NCBI GenBank assembly: GCA_050251055.1
Contig: JBFWNL010000003.1
Coordinates: 1 to 64,000, forward strand
From: Bacteriovoracia bacterium
GTDB taxonomy: Bacteria > Bdellovibrionota > UBA1018 > JBFWNL01
Reading direction: 5' to 3'
DNA: 64,000 nucleotides
Part shown: piece after piece, positions 7,640 to 46,042 of the stretch
How the letters are laid out: every line of letters starts with the position of its first letter
Numbering within the stretch: the stretch's first letter is position 1
Made by a program: the position numbers and the translations under genes
Notes under the pieces: generated by a model
What the model was told of the DNA's origin: nothing
Databases searched by the model: none
What the model saw: the letters and a program-made list of their open reading frames with translations, nothing else

Positions 7640-9292
7640 ATGGCCACCGCGGATCAGATCAAACAGGAAGTCGCCCGACGCCGCACGTTCGCGATCATCT
7701 CGCACCCAGATGCTGGGAAGACCACGCTCACGGAAAAGCTCCTCTTATATGGTGGAGCCATCCACCTGGCCGGGGCCGTGAAAGCCAAGAAAAACCAGCG
7801 CAACACCACCTCCGACTGGATGGAGATCGAAAAGCAGCGCGGGATCTCCGTCAGCGCGAGCGTCCTGCAGTTTGAATATTTCGGAACGCAGGTCAACCTC
7901 CTCGATACGCCGGGCCACAAGGACTTCTCCGAGGACACCTACCGCACCTTGATGGCGGCCGACGCCGCCGTGATGCTGATTGACGCCGCCAAGGGCGTCG
8001 AGCCGCAGACCCGCAAGCTCTTTGAAGTCTGCCGCATGCGCGGAATCCCGATTTTTACCTTCATCAACAAGCTCGACCGACCGTCGCGCGAACCACTCGA
8101 TCTGATCGACGAGACCGAGAAGGTGCTCGGCATCCGCTCTTCGCCCATGACCTGGCCCATCGGGACTGGAGATCGTTTCCGCGGGGTCTACGATCGCCAC
8201 TCGAAAGAAATCCTGCTCTTCCAAACCGAAGGCGAGGCGAATCAGCGCGGCAAGCTCGAGCCCGTGCAGATGACCGGGATCGACGACCCGAAATTCATCC
8301 AGCTGCTCGGCGGCCCGAATAACGACGAACACGAAGCCAAGTATCTGTACGATCAACTCAAAGCCGAGCTCGAGCTGCTCGAAGCGGCCGGGGATGAGCT
8401 GGATATCGCCAAGGTCTTGAAGGGCGAGCTCTCGCCGGTCTTCTTCGGAAGCGCCATGAATAACTTCGGCGTGCAACGTTTTCTAGAGGAGTTCATCAAG
8501 ATCGCCCCTCACCCGTCGGCGCGACAAGGCTCCGCGGGGCCGGTGGAGCCTTGGCACGAAAAATTTTCATCGTTTGTTTTTAAGATCCAAGCGAACATGG
8601 ACCCCAATCACCGTGACCGCGTGGCGTTCATGCGTATTTGCTCGGGCCACTTCGTGCGCAACATGACGGCCAAGCACTCGCGCCTAGAGAAGGAATTCAA
8701 GCTCGCGCGCCCGCTCAACTTCTTCGGCCAGGAGCGCGTGATCGTCGAGGAAGCCTGGCCAGGGGACATCGTCGGCATGGTCGACACCACGGGAAGCCTG
8801 CGCATCGGCGACACCCTTTGCGAAGGAAAGGTTTTCGAGTACGCCACCATCCCCGCGTTTTCACCCGAGCACTTCGCGTCCGTGCGTATCCTCGATCCGC
8901 TCAAGCGCAAGCAGCTAAAAGCCGGGCTGGACCAGCTTTCGGAAGAAGGCGTCGTACAAGTCTACCGCCAGCGTGACTTCGGCGATCGCGACCCCGTGCT
9001 GGGCGCGGTCGGCGCGCTGCAGTTCGAAGTGCTCCAGCACCGGCTGCTCGCCGAATACAGCGTCGACGTGAAAATGGAAAAACTGGGCTATGCGCACGCC
9101 CGCTGGGTCACCGGTCCGGTGGACCTGGACTTTTTTGAACGCCGCGAAGATAGCCGCTGCCTGCTTGACCGCGACGGCAACCCGGTGTTGCTCTTTAAGA
9201 GCGACTGGTCGCTCCGCTGGGCCGAGGACAACCACAAGCAGCTGCAGTTTCTCAAGACGGCGCCACCCAAGAAGTCCGACGGCAAAAAATAA
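7640..9292 (+). CDS. prfC: Peptide chain release factor 3
   Basis: RRRTFAIISHPDAGKTTLTEKLLL, SDWMEIEKQRGISV, DTPGHKDFSEDTYR, FKIQANMDPNHRDR. Confidence 0.98.
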   Translation: MATADQIKQEVARRRTFAIISHPDAGKTTLTEKLLLYGGAIHLAGAVKAKKNQRNTTSDWMEIEKQRGISVSASVLQFEYFGTQVNLLDTPGHKDFSEDTYRTLMAADAAVMLIDAAKGVEPQTRKLFEVCRMRGIPIFTFINKLDRPSREPLDLIDETEKVLGIRSSPMTWPIGTGDRFRGVYDRHSKEILLFQTEGEANQRGKLEPVQMTGIDDPKFIQLLGGPNNDEHEAKYLYDQLKAELELLEAAGDELDIAKVLKGELSPVFFGSAMNNFGVQRFLEEFIKIAPHPSARQGSAGPVEPWHEKFSSFVFKIQANMDPNHRDRVAFMRICSGHFVRNMTAKHSRLEKEFKLARPLNFFGQERVIVEEAWPGDIVGMVDTTGSLRIGDTLCEGKVFEYATIPAFSPEHFASVRILDPLKRKQLKAGLDQLSEEGVVQVYRQRDFGDRDPVLGAVGALQFEVLQHRLLAEYSVDVKMEKLGYAHARWVTGPVDLDFFERREDSRCLLDRDGNPVLLFKSDWSLRWAEDNHKQLQFLKTAPPKKSDGKK

Positions 9293-38556: not shown

Positions 38557-40668
<2,112 letters not shown>

Positions 40669-40688
40669 CCTTCATCTCGCGAATCTTC

Positions 40689-40723
40689 AAAAGGCCGGTT
40701 CCTTCACGGGACCGGCCTTTTTT
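40689..40723 (+). terminator. Intrinsic terminator of fusA
   Basis: AAAAGGCCGGTTCC-TTCAC-GGGACCGGCC-TTTTTT. Confidence 0.9.
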
Positions 40724-40861
40724 GTTTCTGGCGGCGGGGGGCTACCCAGCTGGAATTCAAGCGGCCCCAACCGTCAATTTACACCACGCGCCTATCTCTC
40801 GCGCGCGGGATCCCCTACACTGAAAGTCCGCTCTATACGGGCGGCGAAAGGGGGTGGTGCC

Positions 40862-40915
40862 ATGATGATTACATCGAGTAGCCAACCCATGGCGAACGGG
40901 GTGATGGCGCTCTAA
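40862..40915 (+). CDS. Candidate 17-aa leader/micropeptide MMITSSSQPMANGVMAL
   Basis: Preceded by extended SD GAAAGGGGGTGGT at 40846-40858. Confidence 0.4.
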   Translation: MMITSSSQPMANGVMAL

Positions 40916-40966
40916 ACGAGCGACATCGCGAATCGTAGTTTCCCGTTCGCCATTGGGAAGCTTTTG

Positions 40967-41005
40967 CGGGGAGGCGTTCATTTCGATGGGCGCTTCCCCG
41001 TTTTT
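40967..41005 (+). terminator. Intrinsic terminator
   Basis: CGGGGAGGCGTTCAT-TTCG-ATGGGCGCTTCCCCG-TTTTT. Confidence 0.85.
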
Positions 41006-41192
41006 ACTTGAGCCCTGCGTCTACGAAGACACAGGATCGCGGCTTAGAAGGCTGTCGATTTCCTAAACGGATCTTTCGTCGCCCCTCCTGAATTCATTGG
41101 GATTTTATTTGGTCCCGGTCTTGCTCTTACCTATCCATAAGTTCAACAAATTCCGAAGAGTAAGTGACCGCTCAACCGATTATGGGCAAGGT

Positions 41193-43499
41193 ATGAAACG
41201 GGATCTGGTTACCGCATCTTTGATTTTCTTTTTCGGCGCCATGCTCGCGTCCATGCCGAGCTTCGCCGAAGACCCCGAGGTTGCATCGGCGATTGATCAA
41301 AGCATCAACCGCGTCGCCACGCCGGGACTCTACTTCCAGATCGGTACCCTCCAAGAAGCCCAGCTCGGCGACGTGCTCGGCGCCCACCTGCAGAACAACC
41401 CGCAATTCCTGCAAAAAGCGCTCGAAAAAGTCGAGGGCGCGCTGACCGGCTACACCGCGGTCCTGGGCCCGTTCGATGACGCCACGACATCCGGCGAGAA
41501 CGCGGATGCGATGAGCCTGCTCAATCACTTCTCCACGTTGACCCCCGTGGATGCTAACGGAAAGCCGATCCCGATCGTGCCGATGAAGCTTCGTAACGAC
41601 AGCGGCGTGGAGCGCGACGCAAAGTCGTGGTTCGCCGTCCACGTTCCGAAGCCGGTCGAGGGCCAACCCCCGCCCGTTCAGTTTGAAAGCGAGCTCGAAG
41701 CCAATCCCATCGAGTATGTCCCCTTGGACGATCAAGGCACGGTTCGCGTGACTTTCCGTATGCGTCGACTTTCCGCTCGCGTACGCGGCGCCCGCTTCGG
41801 ATACGCGTATCAAACTCCGGAAACCGTGGATAAGGTCGACGTCCTGGGTCGCCCGGTCTACGACTCCACGGGGCGCCCCGAACAAGTCCTCGTGCCCCCG
41901 ACCTTCCAAGATTTGCCGCTCGGCGAAGATGGCCAACCCCTGGATCCGATCGACGCTAGCGTCGATTTCCAGCAGCCCACGGTCACTTTCGTAGTGAAGA
42001 TGCCCGCGCGCGGAAGCTTGAAAGTGGAAGTACTAGACCTGCAGGTGAACCCGGGCCAGCCGGGCACCGTGAAAGCAAACATCGACTTCCGCCAACGCAC
42101 GATCCGCATCCCGGAGGTACCGGGACCACGTCAACCGGACGAGAGTTCAGTCGAAATCACGCTCGGGGAAAAAAGCGCGACCCAGATCCAGGATCTCGCG
42201 ACGACGAACATGGTGGCGTATCTCACCCGCCTCCCCACGTCACCCACTTTTCAGGAAAAAATGGTGGACCAAGCCAAGGTAGATCTCTCCACCGCCATTC
42301 AAGCCGCGATCCAAACCGAGCGCGTGCCAGTGTCCACGACGATCCCGATCAACTTCGTACGCATCCTGGCCAACCTCAAGGCCCAGATCGGCGACGGCTT
42401 GAGCCTGCGCCAGAACCCGATGCAATCAGCCCGCGAAGCTCCGAGCGAGCGAGAAGCCCGGCGATCGGCGGTGGATTTCCAACTGCTAGAAATCGGTAAC
42501 TCCGTGAGCGCGCTCCAGGCCGTGACCGACCCCGGTGCGCTGGAAAAGCTAATTCTGGGATTGGATGCGGTCGATTTGCTTTGGATTTCCAGCCTCGCTT
42601 CCCGGCCCAACGCCGCCGAAACGGCCAAGGCGCGGGCAGAGGCCAGACGGAAGCTTCTCAAACTTTTGGACAAAAAACCTTCCGAAATCACGGCCAAAGA
42701 CTTTAACTCCGTACGCGACGAAATCACGAGACTCCTTCTCTTGACCCGGGGGCAGGCAAGTTTGGACGGCGTTTTCATCTCCGCTGAGGAAGCAAGCTAC
42801 CTACGGCGCTACCGGAATATTCTCGACGGCATCGGAAAATCCCGTTCGATCGTCTTCAGGGCCTCGGAGGTGGGCACCGACCTTGAGCACGGGGTTTTCG
42901 CCATGGAAGCGTACGTACAGGGCGCCCGCCAAGTCTTGTACCCACTATCCGAATGTGACTGGCGCCCCGAGTTTCGGCGTGCCCGCGAGTCGCGCCTGAG
43001 TATCAGCCTGGAAATCATCAATAACCTCTTGGAGTTTTTCACCGACGCCGGAGAACTCGATCCCTTCCTCAAGGAAAGCGGCCTAAAGCTCCGAGCTCCG
43101 CCAAAGCTGGTGGCGATTCCGGGCACCAACCAGTTCGAGTTCCGCATCAAGGGCGACAAAGGTGGAACCCAGATCGATCTCATGGCCAAGCTTCGCATCG
43201 GGCCTTCGGCCGACGGCCGCGGCCTCCGCATCTATGACCTGCAAGCCAGCCGGACCGACGTCGTCGTGAACTACCCTTGGGATATTCTGGTGTCGGCACT
43301 CGATAGCTTGTTCGGAATTTCCGGCGGACGCTTCAAGGACGCCGTTAACGGCATGAAAACCAAGGTTGGGGAACCCATCGACATCCCGGCGCTCGATCAG
43401 CTGAAGCTGCGGGTAACCGACGTGAGCAACGACACCGCGGGCGTCACGAGCTTCTATTTCGTACCGACCAGCGCCGCAAATACGGAGGGCGCCCGATGA
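41193..43499 (+). CDS. Large secreted protein, BPI/LBP (TULIP)-like
   Basis: Signal peptide; PGLYFQIG near N-terminus; RLSISLEIINNLLEFFTDAGEL resembles the BPI C-domain helix. Confidence 0.75.
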   Translation: MKRDLVTASLIFFFGAMLASMPSFAEDPEVASAIDQSINRVATPGLYFQIGTLQEAQLGDVLGAHLQNNPQFLQKALEKVEGALTGYTAVLGPFDDATTSGENADAMSLLNHFSTLTPVDANGKPIPIVPMKLRNDSGVERDAKSWFAVHVPKPVEGQPPPVQFESELEANPIEYVPLDDQGTVRVTFRMRRLSARVRGARFGYAYQTPETVDKVDVLGRPVYDSTGRPEQVLVPPTFQDLPLGEDGQPLDPIDASVDFQQPTVTFVVKMPARGSLKVEVLDLQVNPGQPGTVKANIDFRQRTIRIPEVPGPRQPDESSVEITLGEKSATQIQDLATTNMVAYLTRLPTSPTFQEKMVDQAKVDLSTAIQAAIQTERVPVSTTIPINFVRILANLKAQIGDGLSLRQNPMQSAREAPSEREARRSAVDFQLLEIGNSVSALQAVTDPGALEKLILGLDAVDLLWISSLASRPNAAETAKARAEARRKLLKLLDKKPSEITAKDFNSVRDEITRLLLLTRGQASLDGVFISAEEASYLRRYRNILDGIGKSRSIVFRASEVGTDLEHGVFAMEAYVQGARQVLYPLSECDWRPEFRRARESRLSISLEIINNLLEFFTDAGELDPFLKESGLKLRAPPKLVAIPGTNQFEFRIKGDKGGTQIDLMAKLRIGPSADGRGLRIYDLQASRTDVVVNYPWDILVSALDSLFGISGGRFKDAVNGMKTKVGEPIDIPALDQLKLRVTDVSNDTAGVTSFYFVPTSAANTEGAR

Positions 43500-46042
43500 A
43501 AAAACTACCGAACTTCGATTGTTTTTCGTGGCGCTTGCTCGCGCTCGCCTTGGCGTTAGGCCAACCCGGAACCGCTGCCCACGCCGACGTATATTTCCGC
43601 ATCGGTCAATCCGGGCTGCAAAAAGTGCTGGAAGAGGAATTCGCGGCCCGAATCAACGGCTCGATTCCGCCCGAGTTATCGTGGCTCCATGTCGAGAAGC
43701 AGAATCATGACTTCCTTGTTTGCGGAAACGCGAATCGACTAGATGTCACGGTGCCAAAGTCTACGCCTACCGCCGGTCCGGTCACCTCCGCTTCGACGCC
43801 GGGAGCCGCCGCGTCCGTCCAGGCCGTTCGACTCCCACAACCTGCCGGCACGAGCCTCAGCTACGAAACCACCGAAAAAGGCATCCGTTTACGCTTCGTG
43901 CCGAGCGAAGTCGATCTAAACATCCACGAGCTCAACGCCAAGATCGAGAAAATGACCGTTCAGCAGGGGGACAACACGATCACGCTGAACAACAAAACCG
44001 CCCGCGTACGCGACCTGCGTATCCACGGCAACGACCCCGCCCATCCGCCGGTGGAGATTTCCTTCGAACTCGTGAAGGGCGCCGACGGCCTCTTCACGCT
44101 CGCGAGCTCCGACGTGAAGGTAAACCCCGCGTCCCTTACCTTAGAGAAAGGCGCGCTAGAAGTGAATGGCCGGCTGCCGGGGCTTTCTGGCGCCGAATGG
44201 GATACGGCGGTCGCTGACTTGGCTTGGCGGCAGGTCCTGGCGAACCGGGAAATGATCGCCCGGCGTTACGTCGAGGAAAAGAAAGCAGAACTCCAAAGCC
44301 AGGTACAGGCACTCGTGACGGAAAAACTGAATCCTCCTCTCCTGCAAGCGTATAACCAGTCGGTTTCCGAAGAAATCCAGCTAATGCTGCGGCAAATCGA
44401 ATTCGTGCAAAACGGCGTCAACGGCGCGCTTTACTCGCCGGAGAACTGTTTCGCGCTTTATCCAGGACCTTCGAGCGTAGAAGAAGTCACCACGGCGCGG
44501 GATCTGGCGCTCTTGCTTCCCCCGGACGAGCTCAATCACCGAATCCGCGAGCAGCTCCAAAAAGGCACGTCGTTCGAGCTCAAGCGTGGGCGCTTCCAAC
44601 TGGAAGACCTGAGCTACGTCTTCCCCAAGGACGGAAGGTACTATCTAGACGTCAAGGGCACGTATGAAACAGATGAGATCCAGGCACGCACGGGCGTGCG
44701 GGTGACCTCGGCCCAAACTACCGCCCACCTCGAAGTAGTGCCGAAGATCGAAAATGGCCAGATTAAGCTCTATCTTTATGAAGCGCCCGGCGCCGAGTTT
44801 GCGGCGCAGGTGCCCCTAAACGGACGTCCGAGCGAAGGCATCGGCGCGCGCTACCAGGTGACGGGCCGCACTCCCGACGGCCGGAGTACCGGGCGCGTTA
44901 CTTTAGACGACGGAACGGAATGGGTCATCGGCCGTGCTTTCTTTGAAACCGGCTTCGTCAAACTCGACCGCCCGGATGGCACCGAAGAAACCCTCACCGG
45001 CCAGCAGTACTTGGAGCGTAAAATCGGCAGTAAAATGAACAAGCAGGTATACGTGGTACGACCGCCTTCCATGCGCGCGCGCGCGGATGGGACTTTCGCC
45101 GTGAGCCTCGAGCTGGAATTGCAAGTGAAGGACTTCAAAGATGCCGAGATGATCGGAAAAAGCTTCGAGGTTTGGCAGCCGACCGATCTGGACCAGGTGG
45201 AGCGCGATAACGCGCGTTCGCGACTGCAATCCCTCTACATGCAGCGCGCCTTGGACGAGTCCGGCTATGACCCGGACAGCCGTTCGCGATCCGGGCTCAG
45301 TAAATACTACCAGAAAATAAAAGACATCCCCGCCGCGGGCCCGGTTACCGATGAGGAAAAACGATTGCATGCGATCGCCACGCGGGCACCGAATCCACGC
45401 CTCTCAAACAAACCGGGCGAGGGACGCTGGGTGCCGAAAACCACCTTTAATGTACAGATGGATCTACGAATGCAGCCCGTGTGGCGGAACGGGCGCTGGG
45501 AATTCGTCTACCAGAAAGTAGCGTCTGCGACTCTCACCGGCCTAGGGGAAAACACCAAACAGCGACGGACTCCCGGCTTTAAGACTTCGCTCGATCGTAA
45601 TCATGCCTGGCTCACGGACGGCATATTGGGCAAGGGACTGAACAGCACCCTTTTGGCCGAGAACGCCAAGATCGCCGGCACGATCGATCAAGAAATCCGT
45701 GGCACGACCAAAGGCGCGATTGTGCTTTTTGATGTTGACCCGAACGATCCGCCGATCCGCAAGACCATCCTGGAAGGCCAAGAGCTGGTACGCGAGTATA
45801 TGGGACGCGACTCCGATATCTCCCGCATGGGCATCGACGGAAACGGGCAGATTTACGTGGATCTCGCGATGACGGCGGCCCCCCCGGGCACCCAAACTCC
45901 GGCGATTCCGCCCATCGACATCCAGGGCAAATTTAACGACGCGATCCGCTCGCGCCTGCCGAGCGGCCTGCAATGGCACCCCGATACCTTGGGTATCGAC
46001 GCGGACGGATCACTCCGCGTGGAAGGTGATTTTTCCAAATAG
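43496..46042 (+). CDS. Large secreted protein, BPI/LBP (TULIP)-like
   Basis: ATGA overlap; signal peptide; DVYFRIGQSGLQKV; DLALLLPPDELNHRI. Confidence 0.75.
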   Translation: MKKLPNFDCFSWRLLALALALGQPGTAAHADVYFRIGQSGLQKVLEEEFAARINGSIPPELSWLHVEKQNHDFLVCGNANRLDVTVPKSTPTAGPVTSASTPGAAASVQAVRLPQPAGTSLSYETTEKGIRLRFVPSEVDLNIHELNAKIEKMTVQQGDNTITLNNKTARVRDLRIHGNDPAHPPVEISFELVKGADGLFTLASSDVKVNPASLTLEKGALEVNGRLPGLSGAEWDTAVADLAWRQVLANREMIARRYVEEKKAELQSQVQALVTEKLNPPLLQAYNQSVSEEIQLMLRQIEFVQNGVNGALYSPENCFALYPGPSSVEEVTTARDLALLLPPDELNHRIREQLQKGTSFELKRGRFQLEDLSYVFPKDGRYYLDVKGTYETDEIQARTGVRVTSAQTTAHLEVVPKIENGQIKLYLYEAPGAEFAAQVPLNGRPSEGIGARYQVTGRTPDGRSTGRVTLDDGTEWVIGRAFFETGFVKLDRPDGTEETLTGQQYLERKIGSKMNKQVYVVRPPSMRARADGTFAVSLELELQVKDFKDAEMIGKSFEVWQPTDLDQVERDNARSRLQSLYMQRALDESGYDPDSRSRSGLSKYYQKIKDIPAAGPVTDEEKRLHAIATRAPNPRLSNKPGEGRWVPKTTFNVQMDLRMQPVWRNGRWEFVYQKVASATLTGLGENTKQRRTPGFKTSLDRNHAWLTDGILGKGLNSTLLAENAKIAGTIDQEIRGTTKGAIVLFDVDPNDPPIRKTILEGQELVREYMGRDSDISRMGIDGNGQIYVDLAMTAAPPGTQTPAIPPIDIQGKFNDAIRSRLPSGLQWHPDTLGIDADGSLRVEGDFSK

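Follow-up and report, generated by a model that had tools for sequence, protein, structure and literature searches.

APsRNA2-type RNAs of the Bdellovibrionota: a structured small RNA downstream of fusA with a putatively translated mini-open reading frame

Introduction

The small RNA (sRNA) APsRNA2 of the model predator Bdellovibrio bacteriovorus HD100 was mapped to 535,188-535,321 on the + strand, a length of 134 nucleotides (nt), with its start and strand taken from transcription start site data, and the same study measured it at 8,869 reads per kilobase per million mapped reads during attack phase, compared with 204 during growth phase (Karunker et al. 2013, PMC3627812). In the sections of that paper on which we draw, APsRNA2 is described as non-coding and as having no homologue outside B. 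bacteriovorus. Here we describe a related element in a window of 64,000 nt (positions 1 to 64,000, forward strand, of contig JBFWNL010000003.1 in assembly GCA_050251055.1, a Bacteriovoracia bacterium of the phylum Bdellovibrionota), at approximately 40826-41006 on the + strand, downstream of fusA. An earlier note, made from the sequence alone, had flagged a highly structured RNA at 40729-41050 in this window. The element is an ordinary further member of an APsRNA2-type family; its open reading frame (ORF), its structure and its spread through the phylum do not appear in the 2013 description of APsRNA2, as far as those sections go, and are added here. A literature search on Bdellovibrio small RNAs and small ORFs, and on APsRNA, found no paper on this RNA besides PMC3627812.

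Two further catalogued sRNAs proved to be comparable in design. Ms_IGR-5 (RF02471) is an actinobacterial sRNA described, in the part of the source used here, as 'validated but yet uncharacterized' (bioRxiv 10.1101/2021.12.14.472595), and CC2171 (RF01867) is an alphaproteobacterial sRNA for which the corresponding part of its source reports confirmation by Northern blot in Methylorubrum extorquens and which is likewise described there as uncharacterised (bioRxiv 10.1101/2022.01.24.477521).

Results

Comparison of the window element with APsRNA2

The features of the window element are as follows.

40816..40821, + strand: -10-like hexamer TACACT, weak (best sigma-70-like match 6/12, CTATCT-18-TACACT)
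40828..40844, + strand: P1, the 5' hairpin CCGCUC-UAUAC-GGGCGG (28-sequence pairing table; RNAalifold)
40846..40859, + strand: extended Shine–Dalgarno (SD) sequence GAAAGGGGGUGGUG, predicted to be mostly single-stranded (pairing to the genome's own 16S tail)
40859..40864, + strand: P2 5' strand GCCAUG (spacer and start codon), pairing with 40888-40893
40862..40915, + strand: 17-codon ORF MMITSSSQPMANGVMAL plus TAA, starting 5 nt after GGUG
40886..40957, + strand: P3, long hairpin with a 15-base-pair (bp) outer stem (40886-40900/40942-40957) and an inner hairpin (40901-40930), the stop codon lying in the apical loop
40888..40893, + strand: P2 3' strand CAUGGC (codons Pro-Met-Ala), also part of the P3 5' arm
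40898..40903, + strand: internal SD-like GGGGUG, 9 nt (three codons) ahead of the stop codon
40966..41006, + strand: P4, intrinsic terminator forming the RNA 3' end, a 16-bp stem (40966-41001) and T run (terminator scan)

APsRNA2 is collinear with this arrangement throughout, having P1, the SD, a 15-codon ORF (MVKNVDITKAEVTSS), GAGGUG followed by 9 nt and UAG, P3 and a terminator, although it comes from another class of the phylum and is only about 50% alike in sequence; the window has GGGGUG where APsRNA2 has GAGGUG. The window element therefore shows both the similarity and the collinearity that define an APsRNA2-type RNA. A covariance model (R2) rebuilt from 28 sequences, the window's RNA among them, gave one match in a whole-genome search of genome G398, at 535181-535263 (+), with 36.1 bits and an E value of 1.5e-5, and positions 108-241 of this locus, L161, are identical to the APsRNA2 sequence of Fig. 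S1 in PMC3627812, whose printed 5' end lies 1 nt ahead of P1. Because L161 is APsRNA2, the family is expressed in at least one species; expression and attack-phase induction are known, from the material used in PMC3627812, for the B. bacteriovorus HD100 member only, and a check of catalogued sequencing runs turned up none holding RNA for the window's DNA.

The 5' end of the window RNA is placed, by inference, at approximately 40826-40827, 1-2 nt ahead of P1. Of 27 homologues, 26 have a TAnnnT box whose end lies 6-13 nt from P1 on its upstream side, with a mean match of 7.7/12 compared with 5.4 in shuffled sequences, and a terminator-type hairpin with a T run ends every homologue.

Distribution of the family

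No Rfam 15 family matched the 64-kb window at its gathering score, and at E<=10 the region 40600-41250 gave only chance matches on the fusA terminator (Thr_leader at 29.2 bits, where 55 are needed, and others). The description of the RNA as unassigned in the earlier note thus holds with respect to Rfam, but not with respect to the literature, the B. bacteriovorus member having been published as APsRNA2 in the passages cited from PMC3627812.

A BLAST search against 60 relatives gave short matches to the mid-region of the element in five genomes, and these seeded the family: set side by side, the five loci have a hairpin, GAAAGGGGGUGGUG, a start codon (ATG or GTG) opening a short reading frame, a second, long hairpin and a terminator, and the genes around them differ. 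An exact-pattern scan of 185,579 species genomes (one per species) returned 51 loci, of which five were genuine, all in metagenome-assembled genomes of Bdellovibrionota, while the remainder were put down to chance (approximately 30 expected by estimate), with one locus, L030, left apart as a possible sixth. L030, on a contig of a metagenome-assembled genome, may be a distant member; it has a 25-codon ORF (MTIFSDSTAVNREVSMRNSGASGAS) and a 5' hairpin, and folds without a clear P3 or terminator.

A first covariance model (R1), built from six sequences, matched 32 of the 116 genomes of the order, and two of its matches, L107 and L108, were rejected as false on account of a missing start codon or an unrelated frame of 45 amino acids (aa). 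R2 found a single copy per genome in 30/116 genomes of the order, 38/127 of the class and 46/151 of an even sample of the phylum Bdellovibrionota, and scored the window's RNA at 60.2 bits. By family, it matched all nine genomes of f21, none of 19 in f11 (order and class searches) and none of 23 in f22, absences that hold for these searches only, with Infernal's stricter filters in use. The sister order f13 (L116-L122, G116-G124) has variant members, in which P1 is AGGAGC-UAGAC-GCUUCU and the ORFs, of 17-19 codons, have different ends (e.g. MSSTSAKVKVALLSKVEL).

Conserved structure

In the 28 homologues, all cells (100%) of P1 are paired, and two of its four pairs show changes on both sides. 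Its outer pair occurs as GC, CG, AU and GU, one of its pairs alternates between U-G (15 sequences) and C-G (13), and its pentaloop is conserved as UA(U/G/C)A(U/C). When RNAalifold was applied to a plain MAFFT alignment, P1 and the base of P3 were recovered with compensatory changes. P3 forms in the individual folds of all 28, and its columns vary in pair type (GC 20, AU 3 and CG 4 in one; AU 20, CG 4 and GC 1 in another), in a pair table that was compiled from per-sequence predictions and so leans towards pairing.

In helix P2, 5-7 nt comprising the start codon and the bases just ahead of it pair with codons further along the ORF, and the pairs found across members include GUGGGA/UCCCAC, GUCGGA/UCCGAC, GUCGAA/UUCGAC, GUGGAA/UUCCAC, GUGAGA/UCUCAC and GAUGGAG/CUCCAUC. 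In the subgroup of the window, GCC(A/G)UG pairs with CA(U/C)GGC, and in seven of the eight members of this register AUG starts are matched by CAU, with a Met codon in the partner strand, and GUG starts by CAC, with a Thr codon there. The spacer of L085 contains a U-G pair, and L099 departs from the pattern. With the main register held fixed, 84% and 69% of cells pair, the misses coming mainly from the subgroup that uses the other register. Cognate P2 duplexes have a mean energy of -10.8 kcal/mol, compared with -7.1 kcal/mol for non-cognate ones, and not one of 20000 permutations over 14 sequence-class representatives was as good as the observed pairing. Synonymous shifts in the ORF (e.g. CCC ACG GCG to CCG ACG GCC) are accompanied by compensating changes in the partner strand.

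The start codon is predicted to be unpaired with a mean probability of 0.25 when the RNA is truncated after the stop codon and of 0.54 when it is complete, a difference that would fit the start being partly freed by the 3' arm of P3 and that proves nothing. A general two-state switch between P2 and lower P3 was supported only in part, since genus g57 and L087 alone have a competing helix stronger than -10 kcal/mol. In three members (L087, L096 and L101), an extra hairpin, CUAG-CCGGAGCCGUAGAUCCGG, directly follows the stop codon in the apical part of P3, and its loop repeats the UAGA of the P1 loop.

A different way to mask the SD is seen in f13, where five of the seven loci read have ACCACCCCCU in the large loop of the terminator hairpin, perfectly complementary over 10 nt to the SD of the same RNA (AGGGGGUGGU). 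This complement recalls the fold-back inhibition of hok-type mRNAs, and a type I toxin mRNA would also be a small and highly structured one. The peptides of the main family are, however, hydrophilic and, at 12-25 aa, too short to span a membrane, and neither an antisense partner nor an antisense promoter and terminator pair was found in the scan of the window. We therefore regard a type I toxin as scarcely credible, and the same judgement applies to a chance cluster of hairpins, which is excluded by the conservation in 46/151 phylum genomes.

These results bear out much of the structure that had been proposed for the RNA. The hairpin CCGCTC-TATAC-GGGCGG is P1 (40828-40844), and is conserved and covarying; the 15-bp stem 40886-40900/40942-40957 with its inner hairpin is P3, paired in nearly all 28 homologues; and the terminator was recovered at 40966-41001, followed by its T run. 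Selection on a + strand RNA, which had been argued from G-U pairs, agrees with the alternation of U-G and C-G in P1 and with the SD, ORF and T run, all of which lie on the + strand, and the covariation among homologues that had been named as a check was found in P1, P2 and P3. Only one arm of the proposed CCCCT/AGGGG stem belongs to the RNA: AGGGG is the SD, whereas CCCCT overlaps the -10-like box and precedes the inferred 5' end. The stem GATG-ATTA-CATC falls in the variable loop of P2, and was not retained as a part of the RNA. The SD, the conserved ORF and helix P2 had not been noticed, and the structured + strand RNA, while conserved, is not simply non-coding, as the SD and in-frame ORF occur phylum-wide.

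Translation signals

The 3' tail of the 16S gene in the window's own genome is GGAUCACCUCCUUUCU, and GAAAGGGGGUGGU pairs with it over 13 contiguous positions, two of them G-U. Pairing of at least 13 nt with the 16S tail is reached at 15 sites in the 3.77-Mb genome, one of them being the reverse strand of the rRNA gene itself, and the SD of the window RNA is therefore very strong but not unique; the idea of a 'ribosome sponge' with an SD of unique length was weakened by the 14 other sites. The sequence GAAAGGRGGUG is kept in all members. The ORF script parsed 43 of 49 loci (of those missed, L083, L114, L115 and L161 show the ORF by eye or with other scripts, and L162 and L163 were not read), and the start codon lies 5 nt after GGUG in 37 of the 43 parsed members, being ATG in 33, GTG in nine and TTG in one. 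An ORF is present in all of the members examined, its length ranging from 12 to 25 codons.

Between the start codon and the internal G(A/G)GGU, 11 different spacings occur, from 21 to 66 nt, and in 38 of 40 cases the spacing is divisible by three. From the motif to the end of the ORF the spacing is fixed, G(A/G)GGU(G) beginning 15 nt before the first base of the stop codon (that is, with GAGGUG 9 nt ahead of the stop) in 33 of 40; in L099, where the first motif has been lost (GAGGUU), the frame continues and stops three codons after a second GAGGUG. The stop codons are TAA in 15, TAG in 12 and TGA in one of the 28 order members, and TAG in 13 and TAA in three of 16 members from the rest of the phylum. 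UGA thus closes one of 44 mini-ORFs, compared with 31% of the long ORFs in the window's genome, and termination would mostly need release factor 1 (RF1), or RF1 or release factor 2 (RF2) at UAA.

These regularities suggest that the mini-ORF is probably translated, and they bear directly on the view that the RNA is a purely non-coding, trans-acting base-pairing sRNA, in which the bases of the SD and AUG would serve as seed or structure and the ORF would be an accident of the helices. That view accords with the published account of APsRNA2 (in the sections of PMC3627812 already mentioned), with a nucleotide conservation that exceeds the need of the peptide (the CGU and GCU codons of the analogous ORF in Ms_IGR-5 hardly vary, if at all), and with the poor conservation of the peptide itself. 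It does not explain why the start should be fixed at 5 nt from a 13-nt SD with only ATG, GTG or TTG in that place, why an N-terminal part of such variable length should stay in frame, why the stop should be fixed 9 nt after GAGGUG, or why UGA should be avoided, and target complementarity was not identified, no target search having been possible. We consider a purely non-coding RNA to be unlikely, while still a serious candidate.

The peptide is weakly conserved, consisting of a start rich in Ser, Thr, Cys and Tyr, the motif (P/S)-(T/M/K)-(A/T)-E-V and three free residues. A plain micro-protein gene, with the peptide of 12-25 residues as its sole product (perhaps modified or used in signalling) and the structure tuning its synthesis, would be in keeping with the retention of the ORF phylum-wide, with N-terminal halves rich in S, T, C, Y, H and N, and with the recurrence of T/A-E-V. 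We nevertheless hold it to be distinctly improbable, because the residues outside E-V vary freely within a genus (L079/L085, L102/L106), the window peptide has no Cys, His or Tyr, the conserved positions coincide with paired or SD-like nucleotides, and no conserved enzyme or exporter was found among the neighbours.

Setting and gene neighbourhood

The surroundings of the element in the window are as follows.

38557..40668, + strand: fusA, elongation factor G (ORF list; Pfam EFG_IV, EFG_III, EFG_C and GTP_EFTU_D2 on the C-terminal 448 aa)
40689..40721, + strand: intrinsic terminator of fusA, outside the element (terminator scan; the sole weak Rfam matches of the region fall here)
40731..40775, + strand: local hairpin proposed earlier, in the minimum free energy fold of this sequence; absent from the homologues, whose upstream contexts differ
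41010..41048, + strand: hairpin downstream of the terminator, proposed earlier, in the fold of this sequence; absent from the homologues

A gap of 470 nt separates the fusA terminator from two large + strand ORFs, at 41193-43499 (768 aa) and 43496-46042 (848 aa), the stop of the first overlapping the second; neither has a Pfam match at E<=0.01 that would bear on the 'TULIP-like' label given to them earlier, and the 768-aa ORF has a signal-peptide-like N-terminal stretch. The 322 nt flagged at 40729-41050 fold strongly, as had been described, with -147.7 kcal/mol on the + strand (z -5.61 compared with shuffles) and -135.1 kcal/mol on the - strand (z -4.88). The conserved unit is smaller than those 322 nt, being the central ~180 nt only (~40826-41006, +), from P1 at 40828 to the T run of the terminator at 41006, and the stems at 40731-40775 and 41010-41048 had to be given up as parts of the RNA, since no homologue has them. 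A BLAST search of the element against its own genome found no second copy. On the - strand, antisense to the conserved unit, a 74-aa ORF with an ATG start (40757-40981) has no Pfam match, and is probably an artefact of GC-rich paired sequence.

Across loci, the nearest ORFs on either side have no Pfam family in common (EF-G, glycerate kinase, SDR, aldo-keto reductase, FliG, poly(A) polymerase, Lon and PilZ occur, among others), and those immediately downstream likewise differ (SDR, PilZ, DUF2079, hemerythrin, ABC and others). Close relatives keep synteny, sharing FliG_C (L086 and L088), PolyA_pol (L094 and L100) or Aldo_ket_red (L082 and L098), and such synteny within genera with unrelated neighbours across genera fits vertical inheritance. 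The position between fusA and the downstream operon, to which a functional meaning might have been attached, is accordingly no functional tie.

The window by itself would allow a cis-acting leader or attenuator of the 768-aa gene at 41193, comprising a leader peptide and a terminator, since a small ORF, alternative helices and a terminator stand upstream of a gene on the same strand. In the 28 loci compared, however, no conserved regulated gene was found directly downstream on the same strand; in 14 of them the ORF that follows is convergent, on the opposite strand (orientation being assigned by a longest-ORF heuristic rather than from gene calls), and its family differs. In the window, 187 nt lie between the terminator and the gene, and the small ORF has no run of one regulatory codon. 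A cis-acting leader is therefore very improbable, and we are highly confident that ~40826-41006 (+) is an independent sRNA gene of the APsRNA2 family.

Discussion

On balance, we favour the interpretation that the window RNA is a translated small RNA, the local member of a family of APsRNA2 type that extends through the Bdellovibrionota. In the mechanism that we propose, the 13-nt SD, which is predicted to be mostly unpaired, would offer the 30S subunit a standby site, while P2 would hold the spacer and start codon against codons 9-11, so that initiation would need P2 to open; in some members, the 3' arm of P3 may compete for the same bases of the ORF. Three codons before UAA or UAG, the second SD-like sequence (GAGGUG, or GGGGUG here) would allow a terminating ribosome to pair through its anti-SD in an initiation-like geometry. 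The output could be the peptide of 12-25 residues, the engagement of the ribosome, or a base pairing that is unmasked when the ribosome opens P3. Because the peptide is poorly conserved outside (T/A)-E-V, we lean to the view that the act of translation, rather than the sequence of the peptide, is the point.

Several observations weigh against a translated RNA, or weaken the case for one. APsRNA2 was listed as non-coding by its authors (PMC3627812, in the sections used), and translation has, for every member, been deduced by comparison only. The conserved part of the peptide (T/A-E-V) coincides with the P3 arm and with the SD-like GAGGUG, so that apparent coding conservation is confounded with structure. 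The members are related and their counts not independent, which overstates the significance of the in-frame spacing and of the depletion of UGA. Four of the 14 other genomic sites that pair over at least 13 nt with the 16S tail precede an ATG at an SD-like spacing. The lower P3 helix that competes for the ORF bases of P2 is the weaker of the two (cognate -5.0 compared with -3.4 kcal/mol, p ~0.002) and strong in a subset of members only, and the promoter match of the window itself is poor, at 6/12, with no match at the element in a promoter consensus scan of the region.

Comparison with Ms_IGR-5, CC2171 and dual-function small RNAs

In a sample of 121 Actinomycetes genomes, Ms_IGR-5 was found above the Rfam cut-off in 85, as a single-copy, free-standing gene; the tally takes in unpublished genomes (G443, G414, G450 and G437), whose loci were not read, and among the loci collected (L171-L200), L173 and L195 were not read. 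Like the window family, Ms_IGR-5 has a 5' hairpin, an extended SD (GGAGGUGGUCC) and a helix between the flank of the SD (GGUCCG) and codons of the ORF (CGGAC). Its ORF of 12 codons ends in T-R-E-V-A-(A/V)-(R/S), with GAGGUG followed by 9 nt and a stop in 24 of 28 parsed loci, the stop being UAG in 21 and UGA in two of the 24 conserved-frame ORFs. In the other four loci the parser took a wrong ATC start; L200 regains the conserved ORF from an AUG, and the remaining three were not re-read. The shortest ORFs of the Bdellovibrionota (12 codons, E8-V9; MVGLPSTEVRAV and MVSLPSTEVRMP) are collinear with that of Ms_IGR-5, whose spacing from SD to start is longer than in the window family.

The covariance models do not join the two families. 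RF02471, which has a gathering threshold of 45 bits, scored no Bdellovibrionota member when run on the window region at E<=10, on 18 loci at E<=1 and on 10 loci at E<=5, and R2 reaches Ms_IGR-5 loci only at E values of 0.18-0.7. What the two have in common is thus a likeness of design and not proof of membership, and it may reflect either common descent or convergence.

CC2171 was compared through loci from 18 alphaproteobacterial genomes (L129, L130 and L134-L150), five of them above the cut-off. It is also free-standing, and carries CAACAAC-GAAAGGAGGUGAUCC, a 15-nt full complement of the 16S tail, with the start exactly 5 nt after GGUG as in the window family, Ser as codon 2 and a terminator. 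Its ORF has 18-32 codons in 19 of the 20 loci read, and starts with MSHCH, MSS or MSN. By eye, the flank of the SD (GAUCCAG) can pair with CUGGAUC in the ORF, and an apparent compensatory change is found in L141 (GAUCCUG/CAGGAUC). CC2171 differs from the window family in having no 5' hairpin but a CAACAAC leader, in its longer ORF, and in a motif, GGAGCAGCCUC, that is read in different frames. RF01867 (cut-off 75 bits) was above its cut-off in none of the 127 class genomes, and gave nothing at the element; in the window's own genome its best match, of 12.4 bits, lies away from the element, while the family member L100 scores 36.7 bits. Homology to CC2171 or to Ms_IGR-5 was therefore not shown by covariance models in either direction.

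An attack-phase sRNA of the model predator, an orphan 'non-coding' RNA for more than ten years, is here given a family and a structure and, in translation, a probable way of acting. Three catalogued sRNAs from three phyla have in common an unusual design of maximal SD, putatively gated start and tiny ORF, and two of the three, APsRNA2 and Ms_IGR-5, have in common a second SD fixed 9 nt before the stop. One might go further and speculate that the APsRNA2-type RNAs, Ms_IGR-5 and possibly CC2171 form one ancient class of ribosome-engaging mini-ORF RNAs across phyla, marked by a maximal SD, a gated start and a stop-proximal second SD, which would report on or buffer the status of translation (e.g. 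termination by RF1, or the supply of free ribosomes in cells that are not growing, such as those in attack phase) and would not act through a peptide or by pairing with targets. We consider this extension doubtful; should the shared design mean a shared function, however, a widespread translation biology would be hidden among sRNAs of unknown function, and since APsRNA2 and Ms_IGR-5 have been detected experimentally in B. bacteriovorus and Mycobacterium smegmatis, it is testable there.

Among RNAs of better known function, the dual-function sRNAs with tiny ORFs, such as Spot 42 (SpfP, 15 aa), rnTrpL (peTrpL, 14 aa) and RNAIII (hld), offer the nearest comparison. To our knowledge, a super-SD, a gating helix of the P2 kind and a stop-proximal SD do not belong to Spot 42, rnTrpL or RNAIII; what these RNAs and the window RNA have in common is a small, terminator-ended transcript with an ORF of approximately 15 codons, translated in the dual-function sRNAs and putatively so here.

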